Source of the DNA: an uncultured Acidobacteriota bacterium
Lineage (GTDB): Bacteria; Acidobacteriota; Terriglobia; UBA7540
Direction: 5' to 3'
Assembly: GCA_963804995.1 (NCBI GenBank)
Contig: CAWDSK010000006.1
Location: 544,001-608,000, forward strand
DNA: 64,000 nt
Positions 240 through 60,991 of the stretch are shown piece by piece. Made by a program: the position numbers and the translations under genes. Within the stretch, counting starts at the first letter, position 1; each line of letters opens with the position of its first letter. The notes below the pieces were generated by a model. It ran no database searches, was not told where the DNA came from, and saw only the letters and a program-made list of their open reading frames with translations.

Positions 240-2765
240 TCAGTACTTCACATTCGAAAGCCGGCCCGTGGTCTCGCCGCGCAGCCACACGTAGATCGGG
301 GCATGGGGAGAGGGTGGCGGCCAGGGAAGCTCCACTTTCAGCGTCTGCTCTTGCGGACTGCCGGGCACAGGCGTGGGAATTCCTTGCGTGGGGAAACCCG
401 TTTTGCTATCCCAACCGGTTTTCTCGATAATCTGCAAGTCCTGGCCGGTCAGGGTTCCGGCGTAAAGCGTTCCGCTAAGTTTTTCTTCCGTCAAAGCAAA
501 TTTCTCAATGCGTGGCAAGCGAATCACGCGGCCCAGCACGGAGGGATCTGAACTCCCCGCGCTATCGGTGGAAAGAGTTGCCGCCAATTGGCACCCCGAC
601 TGGCCGACGACGCCGGGATCAAGCGAAAGAAACAGCCCGTCCTCCCCCGCGAAATCCAGTTGGGCAGTGCCCGTTCTGTCTCCGGGGCGGAGGGTCAGGG
701 CCTGCTTCACAAAACCCTCGTTCGCGCAGGTAAGGCTGAGCGAGGGCCGCGCGTCGAGGTTCTGAGTCAGCAACGAAAAACTTATCGCCCCGCCCGCCGG
801 CATTTCTCCCTTGTCCAATTGCACATCGGGTTGCTGGGCCAAGGACTGACTGATGCCGGCGATCTTCGGCCGTGGACCCGCCACCTGCAGGACATCGGGA
901 ATCTCGAGAGGCGCTTGAATATCCACCACAGAAACTTTCGCGGCAACCAATTCACCGCGATGCGCCGCGGGCAGAAGTTTGACGGTGGCCATGCGCTCCT
1001 TCAGATCGTGAGCGTCCGGCTTCACGGCGGCAAGTTCCCACGTCGCGTCGGAACTGGTAAGGCGCGTGATGCGTTCCAAACTTGTTCCCCGCAGGGTAAC
1101 AGTCTGCTGGGTCTCACCCAGGTTCGAGCGCAGCGGCAGGCTTTCAAGCTGGGGATTGGGTGGATGGATGACCAGCGCCACGTCGTGCGCGGCCCCACTA
1201 GTCTGGGTCAGCTCCAAACGGTAGCTCCCTGCCTCCCAGGTTGAGGTGTCCACTTCGACTTCCATACTATCCTGATCGCCTTGCGCCAAACCCTTCGGCA
1301 GGGTAAAGGTAAGTTCAGCCTTCTTATCACCCGCCTTGGCAATTGCAACCTTATTAACAAACTCAAAGTCCGTGCCGCTCAGTTGGACCTTCACCAGGCC
1401 GCTTCCCTGCGCCAGATGATCCGCAGACTCCTGCGTGACTTTTGCTTTGGTGAAATCTCCCAGGGAACGCAATTCCACCTTCTCCGCCACCTGAAAAGGC
1501 TCCCAGTCCCATAGGGCAGTAAGCTTATAGTCGCCCTCTGCCAGCTTGGTTTTACTCAGGTCGAGTTCGAGCGAATCCTCTGCGGCGCCTGCTTCCACTT
1601 TCACGGGTACGTCAGCGTGTTGACTGGCAGAAACCAACTCCCAGCCGTGGGCGCGCGGCAGCAGCTTGGCATCCGCGGGCTTGGAGTAAGGGATCTTCAG
1701 GTTAGCCTTTCCGCCCAACGGCACATACACCGCTTGCGTGAGTGTCCCGGGCGGCGCGGCCGTATCGGGAAGGCGCAACATCCAGAGGTAGGCGACGCGG
1801 GTGCGCGGTTTTTCCGGCTCTTTTTTCGCACAGAGCGCCAGGCCATTCGTTTCGAAGGGTTGGGTAAAGGCCGCGCGGAAATCACTATCGGGAAACATCA
1901 AGGTGCGCAGGTTCAAGAAAAGCGCCGCGCCTCCCGCCACTAGTCCTACTGGCGAGCCAAAGAAAAGCGCGGCCACCGCGCCCGCCAGACCAGCAGACTG
2001 CTGCGCCACTCCGGAGGGAGTGGAGGTGAGCGGATCAAAAGTTTGGAGCGAAGGGAGCGTCGCCGCCAGTAGCAACGCGGCCTGCTGGTTCGGCGGCGCA
2101 TTCGGGTCAAGCTTGGGTACCGCCACGTTGTAGTCGGCTGAGAATCCTGCCAGCGCCGCGTTCAAGTTGCGGGTCGGGTCCGGCGTCTGTTGATATTCCG
2201 CCAGAGCCTCAACCAGGGCGCCCACCTTGGCCGTTTCCTCCGCATATTCGGTCAACTGAGGAATGAGATCGGGATTCTTCTCCACCATGGAGCTGACCTT
2301 CTTTACGTCCAGCCCATGCGGCCCGAAGACCACTCCCACGACGCAGGCCCGGTGCGGCACCTCCCATTCGGTGGGATCCTTGGCGGGCCGCGCTTCCAGC
2401 ACGTCGAGGTCTTCGCCCTTTTTCTCCTTGCCTTCGTTGTCCTCTTTCTGCTCCTTCGATTTCATACTCGTTGCCGGGATGAGTAACACGGCAATCTTGG
2501 CCTTGTCCTTGATGGCGGGGGGGATGTGCAAGGGCTCATACTTCAACTTTTCGCCCGGCTGGAGAATATTGAGTTCGCGCACTGGCAGCGACGGCCCACT
2601 CTTTGCCGGCTCAACTAGCAGCCGGAACCTGCTGACGTTGAGGCTTCCTGCGCAGGCGGGGCCGGTTCCAGCCAGGCACCGGGGGATAGCTGAAATTAGG
2701 ATTAGAAAAGCCGCGAGTATAAAGACTCTGCCTGCTGAGGAGGGGCGTGGGTTTGTTTTTTTCAT
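240..2765 (-). CDS. Large secreted hypothetical protein (~841 aa), probable repeated beta-sandwich/Ig-like domains
   Basis: Long ORF; ATG at 2765 gives a signal-peptide-like N-terminus (MKKTN...VFILAAFLILISAIP); repeated P-x-I/L beta segments. Confidence 0.8.
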   Translation of the reverse strand: MKKTNPRPSSAGRVFILAAFLILISAIPRCLAGTGPACAGSLNVSRFRLLVEPAKSGPSLPVRELNILQPGEKLKYEPLHIPPAIKDKAKIAVLLIPATSMKSKEQKEDNEGKEKKGEDLDVLEARPAKDPTEWEVPHRACVVGVVFGPHGLDVKKVSSMVEKNPDLIPQLTEYAEETAKVGALVEALAEYQQTPDPTRNLNAALAGFSADYNVAVPKLDPNAPPNQQAALLLAATLPSLQTFDPLTSTPSGVAQQSAGLAGAVAALFFGSPVGLVAGGAALFLNLRTLMFPDSDFRAAFTQPFETNGLALCAKKEPEKPRTRVAYLWMLRLPDTAAPPGTLTQAVYVPLGGKANLKIPYSKPADAKLLPRAHGWELVSASQHADVPVKVEAGAAEDSLELDLSKTKLAEGDYKLTALWDWEPFQVAEKVELRSLGDFTKAKVTQESADHLAQGSGLVKVQLSGTDFEFVNKVAIAKAGDKKAELTFTLPKGLAQGDQDSMEVEVDTSTWEAGSYRLELTQTSGAAHDVALVIHPPNPQLESLPLRSNLGETQQTVTLRGTSLERITRLTSSDATWELAAVKPDAHDLKERMATVKLLPAAHRGELVAAKVSVVDIQAPLEIPDVLQVAGPRPKIAGISQSLAQQPDVQLDKGEMPAGGAISFSLLTQNLDARPSLSLTCANEGFVKQALTLRPGDRTGTAQLDFAGEDGLFLSLDPGVVGQSGCQLAATLSTDSAGSSDPSVLGRVIRLPRIEKFALTEEKLSGTLYAGTLTGQDLQIIEKTGWDSKTGFPTQGIPTPVPGSPQEQTLKVELPWPPPSPHAPIYVWLRGETTGRLSNVKY

Positions 2766-2969
2766 CTCCGCTCGGTCCGATGGAGGATGGTAAGTCTCAA
2801 CAACTATTGGATGCAAGTGCGCTGAGCGGGGTGGTGCGGGCGGGAGCAATTATGAATTATGAATTATGAATTGCGAATCATGGACAACTAGATTGTGATG
2901 TTGCGTAGTTCAGAATTATTTCTGCCATTACGCAGCAAACACCGTGAGGTAGGTGATATTCAAGCGAGC

Positions 2970-3090
2970 GTAGCGCGGACCTCCGCCGTTGAGGTCCGCG
3001 GCTCTTCGTGTGCCATCTGAGCGAATTCAGCGTAGCAAAGCAGTTTTCAAACGAAGAGCCGCGGACCCCAGAAACGGGGGACCGCGCTAC
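2970..3090. repeat. REP-like inverted doublet, family A second copy
   Basis: GTAGCGCGGACCTCCGCC...GGACCGCGCTAC, homologous to 53-189. Confidence 0.85.
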
Positions 3091-3131
3091 GCCGCTGATG
3101 ACCCTTTGATGCCTATTGCATAATTCAGAAC

Positions 3132-3959
3132 TCAGGGTTTCCCCGCCGCGCTCCACACGCAGCGCAGGCCGAAGTCAGGGTTTCCTACTTCGGGATACTC
3201 CGCGTGACGGTCTGACAGGCGGGTGAACTGGGCACCCCACTGATACGAACCGCCCCGCAGACCGCGCATGTTACTGCTCCACGGCCCGGCGGGATCGACG
3301 GACGGGCTGTGCGGGTAGTAGTGGTCATCGTACCCGTCGTTCACCCACTCAAACGCGTTCCCCAGCATGTCGTAAAGGCCGTATCCATTGGGACGCTTCA
3401 GGGCTACGGCGTGCGCGTGCCCACCGCTGTTGTCGTTGTACCAGGCGATTTCGTTGAGAGGGCGAACCTCGTTGCTACCGCCGCGCGCCGCGTATTCCCA
3501 CTCCGCTTCGGTGGGCAGCCGCCCTCCTGCCCACTTGCAATAAGCCGCGGCAGCGTGCCAGTTCACCTCGGTCATCGGCATGTCGTCCTTGGCCAAGTCA
3601 GGGTGGGCCTCGAGATACATGGGCATGCCGTGTCCTGACGCCGCAGCAAAGCGCTTCCATGCTGCCACGGTGACTTCTGTCTGTCCGATCCAGAAGCCCC
3701 TCGCGATCTTTACCTGATGCGCCGGCTTTTCCGGGTCGAAGCACTCGTTGTCACCAGTTGAGCAGCCCATCATGAAAATTCCAGGGGGGATCCAGACGTA
3801 CTTAAGCCCGTCCTTTGGATTCTCGCGCACTGCACCGGGGGTTGGCCCGGCCCCCGCTGATTGGGGTTCGGTCTTGAGGATTGCGGTTTGATAGATTGAA
3901 ACGCCGACGGTGAGCAACGCCGCGAGACCTATGGCAACGAGAATGTGTTTCGATTTCAT
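3132..3959 (-). CDS. FGE-sulfatase (SUMF1/EgtB/PvdO) domain protein with N-terminal signal/anchor
   Basis: Motifs RLPTEAEWEYAARGG, NGYGLYDMLGNAFEW, RGGS and FGLRC; ATG at 3959. Confidence 0.9.
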   Translation of the reverse strand: MKSKHILVAIGLAALLTVGVSIYQTAILKTEPQSAGAGPTPGAVRENPKDGLKYVWIPPGIFMMGCSTGDNECFDPEKPAHQVKIARGFWIGQTEVTVAAWKRFAAASGHGMPMYLEAHPDLAKDDMPMTEVNWHAAAAYCKWAGGRLPTEAEWEYAARGGSNEVRPLNEIAWYNDNSGGHAHAVALKRPNGYGLYDMLGNAFEWVNDGYDDHYYPHSPSVDPAGPWSSNMRGLRGGSYQWGAQFTRLSDRHAEYPEVGNPDFGLRCVWSAAGKP

Positions 3960-4057
3960 GCTTCCAGCTTCCGCCTGTCGGCCCCCTTGGATTCTTTGAA
4001 CCTGCGAGTGGCCCCTCACCCGTCCTCCTCGTTTGACTCCTGGACGAGAAATCCGAG

Positions 4058-4162
4058 CTATACAGAGCGCCATAAGTGTTTGCGCATTCGGCTGTAGCGG
4101 CGCTCTATGAGCGCCGACCGGCGGTCATAGACCGCCGCTACAATTTATGGCGCTGTGTATAG
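4058..4162. mobile_element. MITE-like element with 18-bp TIRs enclosing a GTAG REP doublet
   Basis: CTATACAGAGCGCCATAA (4058-4075) vs TTATGGCGCTGTGTATAG (4145-4162), 17/18 match; inner GTAGCGGCG...CGCCGCTAC at 4094-4141. Confidence 0.7.
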
Positions 4163-4163
4163 A

Positions 4164-4240
4164 ACCCCCGCACCCGTCCCGCTCCGGCTGATGAAAGCGC
4201 CGGCAGCGGTCCACCCTCTCCCCCAAAGGGGCGAGGGCTA
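4164..4240. repeat. CCCCTCACCC-family palindromic repeat
   Basis: Homologous to the repeats inside 8939-9144 and 29374-29543 (ccctctcccccaaaggggcgaggg). Confidence 0.75.
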
Positions 4241-4295
4241 TGAATCTGGCCGTATCGCACTGCTCGGACGGTGATTCTACATCTCGAACGAGGGA

Positions 4296-5334
4296 TCAGT
4301 CGAACGCTGACTGCAAGAACGCCGCCATGTAGAAAGCGTCGAGATACTTGAATGGCGCCTCGGCGGTGATGTAATGGCCGCAGGGCAGGACGCGGGTCTG
4401 GTGCGGCAATCCTCGGCGGGTGAATTCATCGAGGAGCTGATGCGAGTACATCGGCAAGAAGGTTAGATCGTAGGTGGCATAGATCAGCAGGGATTTCTTG
4501 GGCCAGCGCGCGAACTTGTCGACATAGGAAAAAGGGCTGATGGCTAGCCAAATGCGGCGCAGGCGATCCTGGTCGATGTCGCGCTCGATGCCCTGGCGCA
4601 CGTGGCGCGTGGATTGGCCCGTCCACACCACATCGCCAAAGGTGACGGAGAAGTGGTTGAAGACGTTCACCTCCAAGCGCGGGTCGTGCGCGCTGGTCAG
4701 GAAGGCGTAGCAGGAACCGAGGCTTGTCCCCACAATTCCAAATTCGCTTGTAGCCCTGCATTTCCAGCCAATCGAGACAAGCCCGCGCATCGATCACCGC
4801 CTGGCGCCCGGCATCGAGAGTGCGACCCAGATTCGCGGACACTGCGTAATCAGCGCGCTCGGTTTCTGCCGGCTTGCGATAGTCGTGGTAAGGCAGGCTC
4901 AGGCGCAACGCGGAGATTCCCAGGAAGTTGAAGATCCGGCACAGGGCGTTGTGGCTTTGGGCGTCGGCGTTCCACTGCGGCATCACGATCAGAGCGCGGC
5001 GGCGTCCGGCGGGAAACCAGCGGGCCCGCGCCAGGTTGTTGCCGGGGCAGGGCGTGTGGACGGGCGAAGTGAAAAGCAGAAAATCATTCTCCAGTCGAAA
5101 ATCCGAAGGGGTCTGGTAGGCGTAGAAATCGTCACTCGCCGAGACGATCTGCTGGTTCAGTTGGGTGAGGTACGCCTCGGGGTCCACGTGCGCGCAGTCG
5201 CCGGCGCCGTTCACGCCCGGCCAGCCCGCGGTCCAATCGAGTCCCCATTCGAGGGGCCGCACCACGCGGTTGGTGTCGCGCGCGTTGAGCCGCGTCTCCC
5301 AGGCGTACATCCAATCTCGGTAGCGGTCCCACAT
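4296..5334 (-). CDS. Alpha/beta hydrolase, split by one extra base near 4750
   Basis: ORFs 4426-5334 and 4296-4790 join as ...QGY/SEFGIVGTSLG (GxSxG nucleophile) with C-terminal Asp (YDLTF) and His (PCGHY). Confidence 0.8.
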
Positions 5335-5450
5335 CAGTCTGCGGCCTCAGCTCAGAACCATCCATTATACCCAACCCGGCGTGGACGACCACTGTGGCGC
5401 TCGGCCCCGATCATCAATTTGGAAAGAACGCGCTATCGGGGCTCGGCGCC

Positions 5451-8938: not shown

Positions 8939-9144
8939 CTAGTGCGGTGTCCCGAGTTAGAGTTGAGAACCCCCTCACCCCCGGCCCCCTCCCCCAAGGG
9001 GGCGAGGGGAGTGTTAATCTGATTTTATAGCCCTCGCCCCTTTGGGGGAGAGGGTGGACCGCAGCCGGCGTTTTCATCAGCCGGGGCGGGACGGGTGAGG
9101 GGGTCGGACAGCCTTGTCAAATATTTACCGGGACACCACACTAG
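8939..9144. mobile_element. MITE-like element with CTAGTG(C/T)GGTGTCCCG TIRs enclosing a CCCCTCACCC-family doublet
   Basis: 15/16-bp TIR match at both ends; one end homologous to 29374 onward. Confidence 0.75.
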
Positions 9145-29373: not shown

Positions 29374-29543
29374 CTAGTACGGTGTCCCGGTTAATATTCG
29401 ACAAGGCTTCCGACCCCCTCACCCCCCAGCCCCTCTCCCCCAAAGGGGCGAGGGGAGAGCTAATTCTCTTGCCCTCGCCCCTTTGGGGGAGAGGGTGGCT
29501 GGCCGAGGCGTTCTCATCAGCCGAGGCCAGACGGGTGAGAGGG
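29374..29543. repeat. Partial MITE-like element (one CTAGTACGGTGTCCCGG end plus CCCCTCACCC doublet)
   Basis: First ~50 nt homologous to the reverse complement of 9090-9144; second TIR not found. Confidence 0.7.
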
Positions 29544-54926: not shown

Positions 54927-55514
54927 ATGAAGGACGCGCTCAGCATCGAGTCGATGACCGAAGAGCAAAACGACCGGATCTCGACGGTAATCACGCGGGA
55001 ACAATCCCGCCTGCGCAACTTCATCCGCAAGCGCGTTGAAAACGAAAGTGACGCGGAAGACATCCTGCAAGAGGTTTTCTACGAACTGGTGCAGGCTTAT
55101 CGGCTGATGAGGCCTGTAGAGCAAGTAGGCGCGTGGCTGTTCCGGGTCGCCCGGAATCGCATCACCGACCTCTTCCGCAAGCGCAGGCCTGAGTCATGGC
55201 AAGGCCAGCCTGAAAGAGAGGCGGAAGATGGTGAGGAGCTTTTCTTGGAAGACCTTCTGCCCTCGCCCGAAGCCGGCCCCGAGGCGGCCTACGCACGTGA
55301 GGTACTGCTCGAAGAACTTGACGCGGCTCTGGACGAACTGCCGGCGGAACAGCGCGAAGTGTTTATCGCCCATGAATTCGAGGGACGGAGTTTCAACGAC
55401 CTGGCGGCGGAAATGGGTGTGGGCGTGAATACCCTGCTTTCCCGCAAGCATTACGCAGTGCTTCATTTGCGCCGGCGCTTGCGCGCCATCTACGACGAAT
55501 TTACAAAAGCATGA
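54927..55514 (+). CDS. ECF sigma-70 factor
   Basis: DAEDILQEVF, AWLFRVARN, NTLLSRKHYAV. Confidence 0.92.
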   Translation: MKDALSIESMTEEQNDRISTVITREQSRLRNFIRKRVENESDAEDILQEVFYELVQAYRLMRPVEQVGAWLFRVARNRITDLFRKRRPESWQGQPEREAEDGEELFLEDLLPSPEAGPEAAYAREVLLEELDAALDELPAEQREVFIAHEFEGRSFNDLAAEMGVGVNTLLSRKHYAVLHLRRRLRAIYDEFTKA

Positions 55515-55858
55515 GGAGACCCAGCATGAGAGGGAAATGGATATTGAGAGGTTTGAAAATCGCGTTGTTCGTGGCGCTTGCCGCCACGGTGTTCAGCTTC
55601 GTCGTCATGCAGCTCTGGAACTGGCTGATGCCGGTCATCTTCGGCCTGCACCTGATCAGTTTCTGGCAAGCCCTCGGCCTGCTGGTGCTGAGTAAGATTC
55701 TCTTTAGCGGCTTCCGTGGGCGGCCCGCCTTCGCCATGCATTGGCGGCAACGTATGATCGAGCGTTGGGAGCAGATGACTCCGGAAGAACGGGAAAAGTT
55801 CCGAGCCGGCATGCGCGCGGGCTGCGGCCACCCCGATCCCCCCACGACTCAGGCTTAG
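55511..55858 (+). CDS. Small membrane protein coupled to the ECF sigma (possible anti-sigma)
   Basis: ATGA overlap; LWNWLMP..FGL..ISFWQALGLLVLSKILF; MTPEEREKF. Confidence 0.8.
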   Translation: MRRPSMRGKWILRGLKIALFVALAATVFSFVVMQLWNWLMPVIFGLHLISFWQALGLLVLSKILFSGFRGRPAFAMHWRQRMIERWEQMTPEEREKFRAGMRAGCGHPDPPTTQA

Positions 55859-55930
55859 AAGGACGGGTCCTAATGCGGCGGATGCGCTACTCAGTTCGAG
55901 AGCGCCGCCGGTTGCGTAGGGGGGACGGGC

Positions 55931-58900
55931 CATAGGCGTTAAAATAAGCCCGACTGAAGGTGCATCGCATTCCTACGCGCTGGCTATTACTAGCCAGGTG
56001 ATTTGTTTCCGAGTGCCCGTCATCCGCCCGGAATGCGTAATTGTAACCAGACTCGTCGATAATCGCTAGCCGACCAGCGGGGATCTATTGCTTTTTCAGG
56101 ATACCTATACACGACCGCCCAATTTCCGATATGGCGACTTACCGTCAAAGTGAACTGCGATACGAAATCCCATGCCGCGCGTAGTCGTAGCATATCGTCC
56201 ACAACTTCTTCTTGCTGCGTTCCTCCCCACTTGTCTGGGCATGCTATGATTTCGGTTAGATGACAGAGAAATCCCAAGGGCCAGACTACCGGAAATTCAG
56301 GCCGTCCGAATTCATGAGGGCGCGACGACCCCACCTGTTCTCCGACAGCGAGGTGATCGAGCAGGCTCAGCTTGATCCTACGACCTTTGAATACCATCTC
56401 GACACGCTTACTTCCCGAAAGCAGGAACTCGATTTTGAAGGATTCGCCCGCAAGCTGGCTGAAAAAGAAATTTGCCCCAATATTCGACCCCAGACAGGAC
56501 CCACAGGGGGTGGCGATAGCAAGGTCGATTCCGAGACATACCCAGTCTCTCCAGAGATCTCGGATCGCCTGTACTACGCGGATCCAGAGGGCCGCGACGC
56601 TGCGAATGAACGATGGGCATTTGCGTTCAGCGCAAAGGAGGAGTGGCGAGCCAAGGCTATCTCCGACGTCAAGGCCATTGCCGGCACGGGACGGGGTTAT
56701 ACGAAGGCATTTTTTATCACCAGCCGGTTCGCCAAAGACAAGAATCGTGCTGATCTCGAAGACAAGCTCACCAAAGAATACGGGCTCGATGTGCGGATAC
56801 TCGACCGCACCTGGATTGTTACGAAGGTCTTTGAGAACGGGCGCGAAAGACTGGCAATAGAGAACCTAAAGTGTACCGTACCATTGGTTCCAACCCCGAA
56901 GAAAGGGCCGCGCGACCTATCGCGTGAGGCCGAACTGAAGGAACTCGAAGAGCAAATCACCGATCCCAGTCGCTATGTAGGGCTGAGCTACCAACTGGTT
57001 GAGGATGCGTTGCAGGCCGCGCTGCTTGCGCGTGGAATTGAGCTTCCTCGCGCGGAAGTGGAGGCTAAATTCGAGCGTGCGGTTCACCTCGCCGAGAAAC
57101 AAGGCATAAATCAGCAGCAGCTTCGCTGCGCATACAACAAGGCATGGACTTATTTTTGGTGGTATGAAGATTTTCCCTCCTTTATCGGGGCCTACGACAC
57201 CGTTGAGGCGCTTGCACGGGAAAGCTCTCAAGTATCTGATATTGAACTCCTCCAAAACCTGTGGGAACTCCTCTACGCTAGCGCAAAGACCGGAACGTGC
57301 GGTCCAGTCGATGCGCGAACTGATGAGCGCACGGCCACGTTGAGGTCAGCGCTTGAGGCTATTCTAGCGGACACGACACGGCCGAACGCGTCGCTGCGGG
57401 CGCGAGCGAGTCTGCTCCTAATGGATCTCTCGGTCGCCTACGATAAGCCCGAGAAGCTAAAGGAGGTATTTCGAGCGTTTCGCGGTGTTTTCGAAAAAAG
57501 TAAGGGGCTTATCGACTTCCCAGCGAAGCATTTCGTGAAACTGCTCATGGAATTGAGCGATCTTCTGCCTGACGATGAGGAATTCGATGTTACGTTCGAA
57601 TCGGCAATTGAAGTGGCACGCGAGCGCGAGAGCCAGACCGTTTCAGGACGAATGCTCCTCAGGCGGGGCCGCCAGAAACTACAGAGCGGAAAACCATATG
57701 AGGCCATCCGCCTGCTCGGCAGGGCCCAGCAGGATTTGGCGCTCGAGGAGGCTCGCGGAGAAATGGTTATGGCCCTCGGGCTGTGCGGGGCAGCTTACGA
57801 GACCGCAGGACTATTGTGGGCTGCTCGCGGCTGTTTGCTCCTGGCAGTCAATCAATCTCTGAAGGAATTTTGGGAGGAGGGGGAAATAGTTCGGCCCGCA
57901 CTCATCTGCCTGCGCAAAATCATCTGGCTCGAATTACAGCTGGGCCGTGTCCCATGTGTCCTTGCATGGGCCGAGAACTTCCTTATGATGAATAGCGCGA
58001 TCGAACATGATCCTGAAGCACAGAGGCAGCTAGCGGAGGAGTGGACCAATCTCGATGGCGTCCTCGGTCTTCTGCTCCTAAGGACGGACCTCAGAGACCT
58101 CAGGGATCTCGGGTCCCTTCCGACGGTGCTGGAGAAATTTCACCTGGACGGCTCCTGGATGGCTTTGCTTTATGCATTGGGCTATGAGGATAAGCTCCGT
58201 ACCGACAAGGTCATCCCGGTCGATGAGAGTCCAGGAAGCGTCGCAGCGTTCTTCGACAAGTGGTTAAGCCAACCGGCCGGAAACGACCTGCCCTCCGTCC
58301 CTGAATTCATTGACCGGCGTACGGTTGAACTGCGCTCAACTGTCTTAGGCTGTGAGATCCTCGCGACTGTCTCGAACAACAACGAATCGCTGTTCCTGGC
58401 CGAAGGGATACTGGCCGGCGTCGAATCATTTCTGGCGACGAGCTTGGATTTCGCGCTTGTGCCCCACGCTTCGCGCATACATCTCCGGGTCACTCCGTCC
58501 GATTTCCTGGATCAGGTGATCGAGTTCACCGTCAAGTCGGCTCCGCATACCATTATCGATGTCCAACACCGAAAGGACAGCTTGGCGGCCGCGGAGGTCA
58601 CTAGCGCTTTCAAAGACAAACTAGTAGAGATTATTAGCTGGGTCGCGGCACACATCGCGATACCAGCTGAGCCAAGTCTGAGGCATTTGGAGGTTCTAAT
58701 CAGGGACGAACGCGCGCTTGGCAGGGCCATTCTGATCGCCGGGATTGGGACCCTGATCGGTAACGCTTTGGGCGCTAAGCCTAAAATTCGCATTTCGGAC
58801 TGGACCTCGGCGGGAGACCAGGGCGAGAGCTTTCCCCTGCTTCGGACAGAGCCGTGGAGCCATGCGCGGCTGCTAGGCGACTCCGAAGCTGAGAGGGTGC

Positions 58901-60020
58901 CCCCGAGTCCTGGAGTTGGGGAGCCCCCGGCCGAACTGTTCAACGTGGAGAGCCTAAAGCATAGGGATCGAAGGGTGTTCTCCATTATCAACCTTGACCT
59001 CTGGGAAAAGGCTCGTTGGGCCGGTACGGGCTATATCTTCCCGATGGAGACAGACTCAGACGAACCGCCGTACCTGACCTTAATTTTCGAAAACCTCCCA
59101 GCCGCAGAGACTATCTTCCAGGGATGGTTGGAGGAGGTTGGTCCAAGAGATTCCAATGAGAGGATTAGGGTATCCATCATTACGGGGATCAGCATCGAAA
59201 ATCCTGCTCGCTACCGCGTGGTACTAGGATCAAACCCCGACTGGAGCACGATCGCCCCCATGAGCCATTTCGTCATGACATATCGTATTAACACGATGAA
59301 CCCGGCGACCTCGGCAAACTTAGATCGCTTCTTGGAAGCGTATAACGCCCAAAAAAAGTACATGCTCGTTCCAGGCGAGGCGGAGCCGAGCGGGATGGGG
59401 CGTATTGCGCCAGGGCTCGGAATCCTCAAGCACGAGTTGCTTGTCCGCCCAGCTTGGCAGATAGGCGAACATGACCCGGACATCTGCGGCATCGACCTGG
59501 ACGACAAGGTAATTATCCCAGACGGTGTTAAAGACGCTCCGGTTCTCGCAGCGATGGCGAGAAAAAAAGAGACTAGAAGCTGAACCCAATTCATGGCGAA
59601 CGGATGCCACGACTCTCAAACCTAATCGCAAGATGGGCCGAAATGAACTTTGCTACTGTGGAAGCGGCAAGAAATACAAGAAATGCCATGGAATATAGAG
59701 CTCGGCTTATCCACATTCACGCCGGTTCCGCTCGCTGGAACATACAGATCCCTAATGTTCACCGATAATTCTCGCATCGCTGATCTCTTTGCCCGCTGGT
59801 GCGGTCGAAATCAATCCACAATGACGTGTAACGGCCTATGCGCGGATGTGGCGCCCGCTGGTTCCGGGCGGATGGTCTGACGCTCGGAAACAATGAGAGC
59901 GCTCGCATTGATGCACAGCCGCCTACACGGGAAGTGCTGACATTCCGGAACATGGACTTCTTCTCGAAGCATGCACCTTGGTCCTGCCAGAACAGTGCGG
60001 CGCCTATTTTAACGCCTATG
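55931..60020. mobile_element. Non-autonomous IS-end-bounded cassette (IS4-family-like ends)
   Basis: TIR CATAGGCGTTAAAATA(A/G)GC at both ends; exact 11-bp direct repeat GGGGGACGGGC at 55920-55930 and 60021-60031. Confidence 0.88.
56260..59583 (+). CDS. 1107-aa protein with N-terminal restriction-endonuclease-like region and helical/TPR-like repeats
   Basis: FEGFARKL...GGGDSKVD...AFSAK...FITSR...ILDRTWI resembles the Mrr-type PD-(D/E)xK layout; helical central region. Confidence 0.75.
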
Positions 60021-60103
60021 GGGGGACGGGCCCACTCGTCGGGCGGCAATGTGTCCCCTCACCCACCGTCACTGCGGCGATCATGGGCCGGAGATCTTAC
60101 CGC

Positions 60104-60163
60104 TTGACAAGGCTTTTTCCCGGGTTTACATTGGCCTTTGAAAAATGACTGACTGGTCAGTCA
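60104..60163 (+). promoter_or_regulatory. sigma-70 promoter plus TetR-type operator
   Basis: TTGACA-17-TACATT (60104-60132); palindrome TGACTGAC-TG-GTCAGTCA (60146-60163). Confidence 0.8.
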
Positions 60164-60180
60164 GAAAGGGTCCAGACGGG

Positions 60181-60831
60181 ATGACGACGAAACGAAAGGT
60201 GCGCGCCAACGCCTCCAAACCCTTACCCCGAGGCCGCCAACCCAAGGCCGAGCGTCAGGAGCAGATCCTGGCGGCTGCGTTTGAGGAATTCTCGCTCCAC
60301 GGGTACGCGGCCACACGTCTGGACGATGTCGCCCGGCGCGCGGGCATCGCCAAGGGCACGATCTATCTCTATTTTCAGGACAAGGAACGTCTCTTTCGGG
60401 CCGCCGTCCGCAGTCTGATTCAAAAGCGAATGGACGTAGTCGTGGGCACTTTAAGCGGGCCTGCGGAGCAACTCCTGCGCGAGCTGTTATCCAGGATGTA
60501 TCTCCAGGTGGTGAGAAACGACCGGGCCCGGGCCATCGTTCGCATGCTGGTGGCGGAGAGCGGAAAGTTCCCGCAACTTTCAGGCATTTACCATCGCGAG
60601 GTCATTGCCCCGGGGATGAAGGCGATGCGCATGGTGCTCGAGAGGGGCATCGCGGCGGGCGAATTTCGCAAAACGGCGGCCGTGGAGTTTCCGCAGATCC
60701 TCGCCGCCCCGGGAATCATGGCCATCCTGTGGAGATTGCTTCACGGAGATCGCTATCGCCTAGACCTGGATGCGTACATGAAAGCGCACATCGAGCTGGT
60801 TTTGGGCAGCTTGCGCCAGGAGCATTCGTGA
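60181..60831 (+). CDS. TetR/AcrR family regulator
   Basis: ILAAAFEEF...GY...DDVARRAGIAKGTIYLYF.DKE. Confidence 0.93.
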   Translation: MTTKRKVRANASKPLPRGRQPKAERQEQILAAAFEEFSLHGYAATRLDDVARRAGIAKGTIYLYFQDKERLFRAAVRSLIQKRMDVVVGTLSGPAEQLLRELLSRMYLQVVRNDRARAIVRMLVAESGKFPQLSGIYHREVIAPGMKAMRMVLERGIAAGEFRKTAAVEFPQILAAPGIMAILWRLLHGDRYRLDLDAYMKAHIELVLGSLRQEHS

Positions 60832-60836
60832 AGCTC

Positions 60837-60958
60837 CTGGCGTAGTGTCCGGTAATTAACTGGATAACGTAGCGCCGCCATCTTGGCGGCAATTGCCGGC
60901 AGGATGCCGGCGCTACGGCTAGGACGATTGTCCAGCCATTTCCTGGACACTCCACTAG
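60837..60958. mobile_element. MITE-like element with degenerate CTAGTG.AGTGTCC TIRs enclosing a GTAG REP doublet
   Basis: CTGGCGTAGTGTCCGGTAA vs reverse-complemented CTAGTGGAGTGTCCAGGAA; inner GTAGCGCCG...CGGCGCTAC at 60869-60916. Confidence 0.6.
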
Positions 60959-60991
60959 CGCTCAGAGCCCGCTGAGTAGAGGAGAGAACCC

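Follow-up and report, generated by a model that had tools for sequence, protein, structure and literature searches.

What brought a single large gene, bounded by ends like those of an insertion sequence (IS) and accompanied by no transposase, into an intergenic gap of an acidobacterial genome? The question is raised by positions 55931-60020 of a stretch of 64,000 nucleotides from an uncultured Acidobacteriota bacterium (contig CAWDSK010000006.1 of assembly GCA_963804995.1); the whole stretch is called the window throughout. An earlier reading of the DNA letters, made without database searches and referred to as the sequence-only reading, had proposed a cassette with IS4-family ends, moved in trans and carrying a putative defence gene. 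From its sequence features, the segment is very probably a non-autonomous mobile insertion cassette (MIC) derived from an IS4-family element with IS231-type ends. According to PMC6199540, which refers to Chen et al. 1999, a MIC has IS-related inverted repeats and no transposase, holds one or more passenger genes, and is moved in trans. The segment has IS-type inverted repeats, no transposase, a passenger open reading frame (ORF), and a target duplication of the parental length, as 11 bp are duplicated here and in 17 related elements that include autonomous ones. Its movement in trans is presumed by analogy.

The cassette spans 4090 bp and has a G+C content of 55%, compared with 58-62% in its surroundings. 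It is delimited by the following features.

55931..55949, plus strand: terminal inverted repeat of end B (CAT...AAGC), CATAGGCGTTAAAATAAGC; the same genome has 10 exact copies of this pattern
60002..60020, minus strand: terminal inverted repeat of end A (CAT...AGGC), CATAGGCGTTAAAATAGGC; matches end B at 18 of 19 positions
55920..55930, no strand: left 11-bp target-site duplication GGGGGACGGGC, directly outside end B; outer triplets rich in G/C, as in 17 sister insertions
60021..60031, no strand: right 11-bp target-site duplication GGGGGACGGGC, directly outside end A

With up to 3 mismatches, the end pattern is matched just twice in the window, where 0.01 matches are expected; the 11-mer occurs exactly twice, where 0.12 occurrences are expected. 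Two or more matches of the end, or two or more occurrences of the 11-mer, were reached in none of 100 shuffles. The inverted ends and the flanking 11-mer thus stand exactly where the sequence-only reading had placed them, and beyond chance. That inverted and direct repeats merely happen to surround an ordinary chromosomal gene has a negligible probability: nothing speaks for it beyond the G/C-rich, repeat-rich genome, and besides the shuffles it speaks against it that the same ends bound other elements with duplications of their own. Since 55919 and 60020 are both G, and 55931 and 60032 both C, the boundary of the duplication could formally be placed one base further in either direction. As the sister elements all end in CAT...ATG with 11-bp duplications, 11 bp is taken as the correct length. 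A minus-strand ORF of 147 aa (55490-55933), for which a family match is absent, uses as its start codon the ATG opposite the initial CAT of the cassette end and extends into the flank. It is probably spurious, and it shows that a cassette end is able to supply an outward start codon.

Within the cassette, ORF 56260-59583 was confirmed as the sole long ORF. To the earlier description is added a second, short ORF (59525-59698) with a SEC-C motif, which is the frameshifted tail of the large gene. Scans of the cassette ORFs against Pfam, NCBIfam, and PADLOC found no transposase domain. No remnant was found when six IS4-family transposases were compared by tblastn with 55931-60020, the best match (E 0.064) being a 38-aa stretch within the large ORF. 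These scans and the tblastn search uphold the claim that no DDE transposase is to be recognized, and no degraded one was found by tblastn in 55950-56260 or 59590-60000, the two intervals in which the sequence-only reading had considered that a decayed IS might show.

The genome from which the window is taken (7.55 Mb on 9 contigs, assembly 92% complete) holds 10 exact copies of the 19-mer end and one copy with a single mismatch, compared with one match at up to 3 mismatches for a reversed control. These ends delimit further cassettes.

Contig 3, 136650-144217: sister cassette E1, 7568 bp, 9-bp duplication
Contig 3, 837399-841240: sister cassette E2, 3842 bp, exact 11-bp duplication
Contig 6, 1929309-1932096: sister cassette E3, 2788 bp, exact 11-bp duplication
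Contig 6, 1048368-1053903: fifth cassette, about 5.5 kb, second end lacking its first 52 nt

Each type of end also occurs once by itself, as a solo A end and a solo B end. In E1-E3, the ends extend into modules of 159-170 bp (A) and about 160 bp (B), each 89-98% identical among the three cassettes. Between the modules, E1-E3 and the window cassette have no sequence in common. The window cassette, which has the opposite orientation, is a diverged member of the set, with the following internal layout.

55931..56032, plus strand: end module B, about 102 bp, 74-83% identical to the B ends of E1-E3 and to the solo end
55980..56010, plus strand: inward-facing, terminator-like hairpin within end B (7-bp stem, TTAC loop) followed by a T-rich tail
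56132..59838, plus strand: cargo segment; a locus in a genome of another genus (G047), without cassette ends, is 88.6% identical to it over 3714 aligned columns
59887..60020, minus strand: end module A, about 134 bp, 73% identical over 135 bp to the sister A ends

In the hairpin of end B, 2 of the 7 pairs differ from the sisters on both sides, and 90.6% of the cells are paired, a value equalled in 19 of 500 shuffles; across the two lineages, this is a weak sign that pairing is conserved. No RNA family was found by Rfam between 55500 and 60500 at E ≤ 0.1, and a promoter scan found no sigma-70-like site within the cassette. At their inner borders, the modules adjoin dispersed repeats, which many family genomes possess unaccompanied by the inverted repeats; such repeats would allow cargo to be exchanged by recombination. 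Sub-terminal matches in congeners were considered as possible cassette ends and rejected, as they were unlinked to the inverted repeat in the 11 loci fetched and represent another dispersed repeat.

Each of the two solo ends, A on contig 6 (1082498; L014:501) and B on contig 5 (247302; L012:10001), directly adjoins a copy of a miniature repeat of about 210 bp; the point of contact within the repeat is the same for both, and so is the orientation of the repeat toward the end. The flanks share 50 of 51 bases, an arrangement that an ordinary duplication would not give. This repeat lies in the window at 9093-9143 and 29381-29432, and a 60-base query agreed with 54 genomic places at 50 bases or more; short inverted matches about 208 bp away suggest that it has terminal inverted repeats.

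The same cassettes bear on a different origin, in which an autonomous IS4-family element with the large gene as passenger lost its transposase in place and the cassette itself never moved. Elements of the IS231 subgroup with passenger DNA beside the transposase are described in PMC2266710, and one cassette of another genome (L050, see below) has a transposase of another type (PF13701) beside PifA. Against such decay, no remnant was found in the 330 bp before the gene, the 440 bp after it, or elsewhere in the cassette, and the cargo segment spans nearly from end module to end module. The sisters equally lack a transposase, so that five independent clean losses would be required: tblastn of E1-E3 with the same six transposases gave no remnant, the best E being 0.29, and a Pfam scan of the long ORFs of the fifth cassette, the only check made there, showed no transposase domain. 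In-place decay is thus considered improbable, and a MIC remains the preferred explanation.

The assignment of the ends to a family is based on published signatures. In the IS4 subgroup table of PMC2266710, IS231 is listed with CAT-------AA--TAA--- and 10-12-bp repeats, and ISH8 with CAT-----------T----- and 10 bp. All 8 positions that the IS231 signature specifies are matched by end B; in end A, positions 15-17 read TAG in place of TAA. The duplication of 11 bp falls within the 10-12 bp of the IS231 subgroup. Signature and duplication length therefore agree with the tabulated values, as the sequence-only reading had proposed.

The end is not confined to the genome of the window. In a collection scanned with one genome per species, the exact 19-mer was found in at least 114 stretches, assigned by record title to Acidobacteriota, Armatimonadota, Proteobacteria, Bacteroidota, and others, many of them at contig ends. 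Among viral contigs, only two stretches have the end. Among the 79 loci fetched from this collection were autonomous elements, miniature elements (MITEs), and cassettes with other cargo.

L032: autonomous element, 1304 bp, 367-aa transposase, exact 11-bp duplication
L049 and L059: autonomous elements, 1293 bp, 344-aa transposase, exact 11-bp duplications
L027 and L085: autonomous elements, 1373-1374 bp, 381-aa transposase (L027), duplication matching at 10 of 11 positions in L027, none found for L085
L028, L045, L058, L069, and L081: MITEs, 145-281 bp, 10-11-bp duplications
L050, L071, L074, and L098: cargo cassettes of 4442, 3649, 2365, and 5235 bp

The first 16-19 nt of L032, L049/L059, and L027/L085 are identical to the cassette end, and their transposases match PF01609 or are homologous to those that do. 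Of 8000 candidates scored, 1095 are relatives of the L032-type transposase at E ≤ 1e-20. Most of these proteins have about 355 aa and are encoded on contigs about 1.3 kb long, and one bears the name 'IS4 family transposase [Terriglobia bacterium]'. None of the 79 loci matched the end modules of the window's genome further inward than the first 19-29 nt. With four more in the same genome and four in other genomes, the expectation that cassettes with different cargo exist was borne out.

Related ISs, with somewhat different ends, are present in the genome of the window itself.

T374: 1338 bp, 374-aa transposase, exact 11-bp duplication
T383: 1330 bp, 383-aa transposase
T3: 1390 bp, 369-aa transposase; six copies, identical in alignment (about 1.39 kb), five of the six with exact 11-bp duplications

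Their ends read CATA.GCG.TA..(A/C)TA. The proteins match PF01609 and the NCBIfam model NF033592 'IS4 family transposase', T374 (140 bits) and T383 (117.5 bits) above the cut-off of 115 and T3 (104 bits) below it, and a Y-x2-R-x3-E-x6-K motif was read from the three sequences. Among 17 elements with duplications of 11 bp, G or C fills 93 of the 102 cells at the outer target positions, three on each side, and the centre is mixed. IS231A reportedly prefers a GGG-N5-CCC target, which the observed pattern resembles.

A further transposase-less element of 2660 bp (contig 6, 61427-64086; L015:501-3160) has the related ends CATAAGCGTTAAC... and CATAGGCGTTAACC... and a duplication matching at 10 of 11 positions. 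Its one ORF of 575 aa had no match in Pfam, NCBIfam, or PADLOC. More ends of this CC-type family adjoin hairpins resembling repetitive extragenic palindromic (REP) sequences.

The site of insertion was compared among congeners. It is flanked by the following genes.

Left: gene of an extracytoplasmic function (ECF) sigma factor, 54927-55514, then a 115-aa ORF, 55511-55858
Right: TetR-family gene, 60145-60831, then an outer-membrane efflux gene

Both flanks were found on one contig in 12 of 18 genomes of the same genus, with 67-77% identity, 326-2097 bp apart, and with no cassette between them. The spacing in the window, after subtraction of the cassette and one copy of the repeat, is 321 bp, a value near those of G006 (326 bp) and G010 (391 bp). 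In 6 congener loci, homology of the left flank ends about 100 bp before the insertion point, and that of the right flank begins about 120 bp after it. The gap between the TetR and efflux genes contains a repeat of about 120 bp (60832-60959), with 84-91% identical copies on at least 6 contigs of the genome and in many congeners.

The cargo gene and the protein that it encodes have the following parts, the domains being those of a predicted model.

56260..59583, plus strand: cargo gene (product P0001), 1107 aa in its present form; a frameshift makes it shorter than its relatives of 1146 aa
56368..56880, plus strand: putative N-terminal PD-(D/E)xK (Mrr-like) nuclease-fold domain, residues 37-207, from model and superposition
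56902..58287, plus strand: predicted all-helical TPR-like array, residues 215-676; Z up to 13.3, near noise for helical repeats
58321..59529, plus strand: two predicted alpha/beta C-terminal domains, residues 688-1090; best Z 8.0, noise level
59558..59698, plus strand: detached C-terminal tail with the SEC-C zinc-binding motif (Pfam PF02810, E 8.9e-11), in frame +1 relative to the main ORF
59560..59569, plus strand: A-rich run at the frame break, lacking 2 nt compared with an in-frame sequence

Of 8000 candidates scored, 1094 are related to P0001 at E ≤ 0.001; they have 1080-1160 aa, are all unnamed or 'hypothetical', and come from cyanobacteria, Thermodesulfobacteriota, and many metagenomes. 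The C-terminal SEC-C motif is present in many of the closest ones. A relative of 1146 aa (P0003), 88% identical to P0001, aligns without gap to residue 1104, and 35 of its last 45 residues (1101-1145) are identical in the separate ORF 59525-59698; the alignment thus indicates that the last 40 residues are out of frame in the window copy. One low-depth contig from a peat metagenome has 12 letters at place 59564 and restores the in-frame reading. The DNA coding for the SEC-C motif (59621-59692) matches distant genomes of the order and class over 62-72 nt with 77-83% identity, which indicates that the motif is conserved even at the nucleotide level.

P0003 was modelled with AlphaFold2 from an alignment of 57 sequences (mean predicted local distance difference test (pLDDT) 84.8, predicted template modelling score 0.74). 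Residues 37-207 superimpose onto the catalytic domain of AspBHI (4oc8; Z 9.8, root-mean-square deviation (r.m.s.d.) 4.5, 144 residues) and onto the N-terminal nuclease of Avs4 (8dgf; Z 9.6, r.m.s.d. 3.2, 136 residues). Residues D86, K88, D90, E92, and K126 are invariant in the 57 sequences; the catalytic residues were assigned by eye, and loop 79-86 has a pLDDT below 50. Residues 215-618 resemble TPR arrays, with Z values that are uninformative for helical repeats. Foldseek with the whole model returned nothing but helical-repeat proteins, and a profile of the cargo had no match among the sequences of solved structures. When the C-terminal half was folded alone (pLDDT 73.4), a sub-domain of M1 aminopeptidase was returned with Z 8.0 and was rejected as noise, no HExxH being seen in residues 681-1107. 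The SEC-C tail matches the PADLOC profiles E2 and PDC-S12 solely through the motif itself. An Atlas search with the cargo returned unnamed clusters and one lead to Cap4_nuclease at 0.86, which is treated as a lead only. No P-loop or STAND NTPase module was matched in Pfam or NCBIfam; as this module is lacking and the region after the nuclease is all-helical and TPR-like, the protein is not an Avs/STAND protein.

The distribution of the gene differs from that of the cassette. It is patchy, being present in 4 of 133 genomes of the family, and the cargo DNA is 88.6% identical across genera, compared with 73-77% within the genus for the chromosomal flanks. The copy in the other genus is bracketed by an inverted repeat of 40 nt (L141:1053-1092 and 5001-5040), 80% complementary, each arm of which has a G/C hairpin and a T-rich tail. 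Transposon ends were considered for this repeat and rejected, as it looks like two facing terminator hairpins instead. In 80 metagenome loci of P0001 relatives, examined with up to 1500 bp of flank on each side, many contigs being shorter, none had the ends; the single match with 3 mismatches lay inside a gene. Given these loci and the copy in the other genus, both without ends, the gene spreads by several routes and was captured by this cassette type at least once. L071 (duplication matching at 10 of 11 positions), whose sole long ORF is a 43%-identical homologue in the same orientation, may represent a second capture or an old common one; this homologue also had no family among those of PADLOC-DB 2.0.0.

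L071 raises a further alternative, namely that the large protein is itself the mobility enzyme, a transposase based on a PD-(D/E)xK nuclease that uses these ends, as its homologue there is the only long ORF and is placed alike relative to the AAGC and AGG ends. This is very improbable: the sister cassettes with the same ends lack the gene, the ends are missing from the copy in the other genus and from the flanks of the metagenome loci just described, and the same ends flank ordinary DDE transposases in the autonomous elements. The protein is better regarded as the passenger of a MIC.

The contents of the other cassettes bear on its possible function. E3 carries HEC-01A and HEC-01B (PADLOC E 4e-154 and 1e-73; AAA_21 and DUF4276), and the same cargo is found without the ends in 8 other genomes at 82-89% identity. 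The fifth cassette encodes a LexA-like S24 repressor, an 824-aa protein of N6-methylase/Eco57I type, an HNH protein, and a protein without assignment. E1 encodes a DUF1643 protein, a radical SAM/SPASM enzyme, an XRE regulator, an M78-chagasin protein (capP-like, E 1e-17), a papain-like protease, and a protein without assignment. L098 encodes a ThuA-TIR protein, an unassigned protein, a GHKL ATPase (HATPase_c_3), and a nuclease-like protein. L050 carries PifA (E 9e-116) beside a 499-aa PF13701 (DDE_Tnp_1_4) transposase (L050:4830-6329) of a type different from the 344-383-aa enzymes, which may be a nested IS or an alternative partner. Known or plausible defence genes are present in 6 of the 9 cargo cassettes examined, a small sample that was not randomly drawn. 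A defence role of the window gene is proposed because of the nuclease-like fold of its product and the defence cargo of the sister cassettes, and its function is accordingly termed putative. On balance, a single-gene anti-phage nuclease of abortive-infection type, whose helical array would sense a trigger, is slightly favoured.

A mechanism can be outlined from what is common in the family. A DDE transposase made elsewhere would bind both 19-nt terminal inverted repeats and excise the cassette, in the way that PMC6199540 reports for MIC231 and IS231. Pasting into a G/C-rich target through staggered cuts 11 bp apart would leave GGGGGACGGGC in duplicate, here in the intergenic gap between the pair formed by the ECF sigma-factor gene and the small ORF and the TetR regulator gene. 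The hairpin and T-tract of end B may shield the cargo from outside transcription. The 3.7-kb segment between the modules, which exists without these ends in another genus, would travel as cargo. Taken together, the MIC mechanism, the structure, and the reading of the cargo are likely to be right.

Several observations weigh against parts of this account. Of the autonomous partner and the empty site that the sequence-only reading had called for, each was obtained in part. Autonomous IS4-family elements with an identical end exist in other genomes; a transposase with that end was not found in the 92%-complete assembly, which holds only related ISs with ends agreeing at about 15 of 19 positions, the closest enzyme being at most 36% identical to that of L032. 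The flanking genes do adjoin without the cassette in 12 of 18 congeners; an exact empty site was not found in them, the intergenic target being unconserved and unalignable. Of 24 metagenome runs found, the best holding 0.25 of the query words, four were assembled against the locus; their contigs, short and of low depth, all lay inside the cargo gene, none crossed either end, and no joints were seen, a result that speaks neither for nor against an empty site. The window cassette is single-copy in its genome and gives no direct sign of recent movement. The 128-bp A module is found at 6 places in this genome and was not found in 132 other genomes of the family (E ≤ 1e-5), so that, as far as these sequences indicate, the cassette lineage is known from one genome only. 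With respect to defence, the metagenome loci without ends mean that a P0001-type gene is not a habitual passenger of these cassettes, and E2 holds Transgly_assoc, BON, and unassigned small proteins, which are of stress type and not of defence type. P0001 belongs to no Pfam, NCBIfam, or PADLOC family (none in PADLOC-DB 2.0.0), and its frameshift may be an assembly error or a real defect.

Some of these points would suit a cassette that is a MIC by origin and is now immobile, its ends being recognized by no transposase in the cell. In addition to the missing identical-end transposase, every cassette is single-copy, the ends of the window cassette have drifted to 73-83% identity from the sisters, one sister end is truncated, and two ends are solo. 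Against this, the six identical copies of T3, five with intact 11-bp duplications, show that an active enzyme is present; over the first 17 positions, the right end of T3 and the cassette end disagree at 2, and in PMC6199540 the IS231 transposase is reported to act in trans on related ends. The assembly is also only 92% complete. Such immobility is given nearly an even chance, and continued mobility of the cassette in this cell is rated slightly lower; both leave the origin as a MIC unaffected.

A broader idea, offered tentatively and judged doubtful, is that IS4-type end modules form a reusable shuttle for anti-phage genes, by which resident genes would be captured and moved by a borrowed transposase. 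It arises from the two modules of about 100-170 bp that surround at least five gene sets in one genome, at least two of which are present without the ends in related genomes at 82-89% identity. If this were so, the shuttle would be a transposon-based counterpart of integron cassettes, and here it would carry a nuclease of defence that is new, widespread, and encoded by a single gene, with an Mrr-like nuclease, a TPR array, and a SEC-C motif.

The kind of element is already known: it is a mobile insertion cassette, and MICs, although known, are rarely catalogued. Novelty lies in the host group, in a single genome that holds a set of cassettes sharing their ends and carrying mostly defence-type genes, in the broad range of phyla in which one 19-nt end is found, and in the uncharacterized passenger family. 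In literature on mobile insertion cassettes combined with phage and defence, judged by titles, no title about defence cargo was found. According to a 2008 survey (PMC2266710), the modular build of MICs had not been seen outside the IS231 subgroup of Bacillus. The cassette set would offer a simple route by which single defence genes could spread and be reshuffled without plasmids, phages, or integrons, and a family of proteins of about 1100 residues, with more than 1000 members, is singled out as a candidate defence nuclease.

Among known systems, the cargo protein recalls Avs4 (8dgf), whose N-terminal nuclease superposes and is followed by a long array of helical repeats, and AspBHI (4oc8), whose catalytic domain superposes on the N-terminal domain. 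It differs from both in its C-terminal domains and SEC-C tail, which have no counterpart there, and in the lack of a sequence match to solved structures; unlike Avs4, it has no STAND or P-loop NTPase detected by Pfam. The cassette itself is closest to MIC231 of the B. cereus group, with which it has in common two IS-type inverted repeats around passenger genes without transposase, a conserved stretch beside an end that is common to cassettes with different cargo, and the end signature CAT-------AA--TAA with a 10-12-bp duplication, movement in trans being assumed here by analogy (PMC6199540 and PMC2266710). It differs from MIC231 in its Gram-negative, soil-type host, IS231 being reported almost only from the B. 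cereus group in PMC2266710, and in its size class, 2.8-7.6 kb compared with the 0.7-3 kb quoted for MICs in PMC6199540. The related transposases here have 344-383 aa, and the cargo is mostly of anti-phage type, which also sets these cassettes apart from MIC231. The IS231 transposase is larger than 344-383 aa. With the subgroups IS231 and ISH8, as described in PMC2266710, the present elements share the CAT ends, a duplication roughly as long as one helical turn, autonomous relatives with a single-ORF DDE transposase and a YREK motif, and a target that is G/C-rich around a variable centre; this likeness is one of ends, duplication, target, and motif, and the choice of subgroup is accordingly provisional. 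The autonomous relatives, of 1.29-1.39 kb, fall below the ranges of both IS231 (1450-5400) and ISH8 (1400-1800) given there. Finally, the qnrS2 and qnrD cassettes and the Tn3-type MICs of Xanthomonas are likewise transposase-less, bounded by inverted repeats, and spread one adaptive gene; those elements come from other transposon families and plasmid contexts, with resistance or effector cargo.

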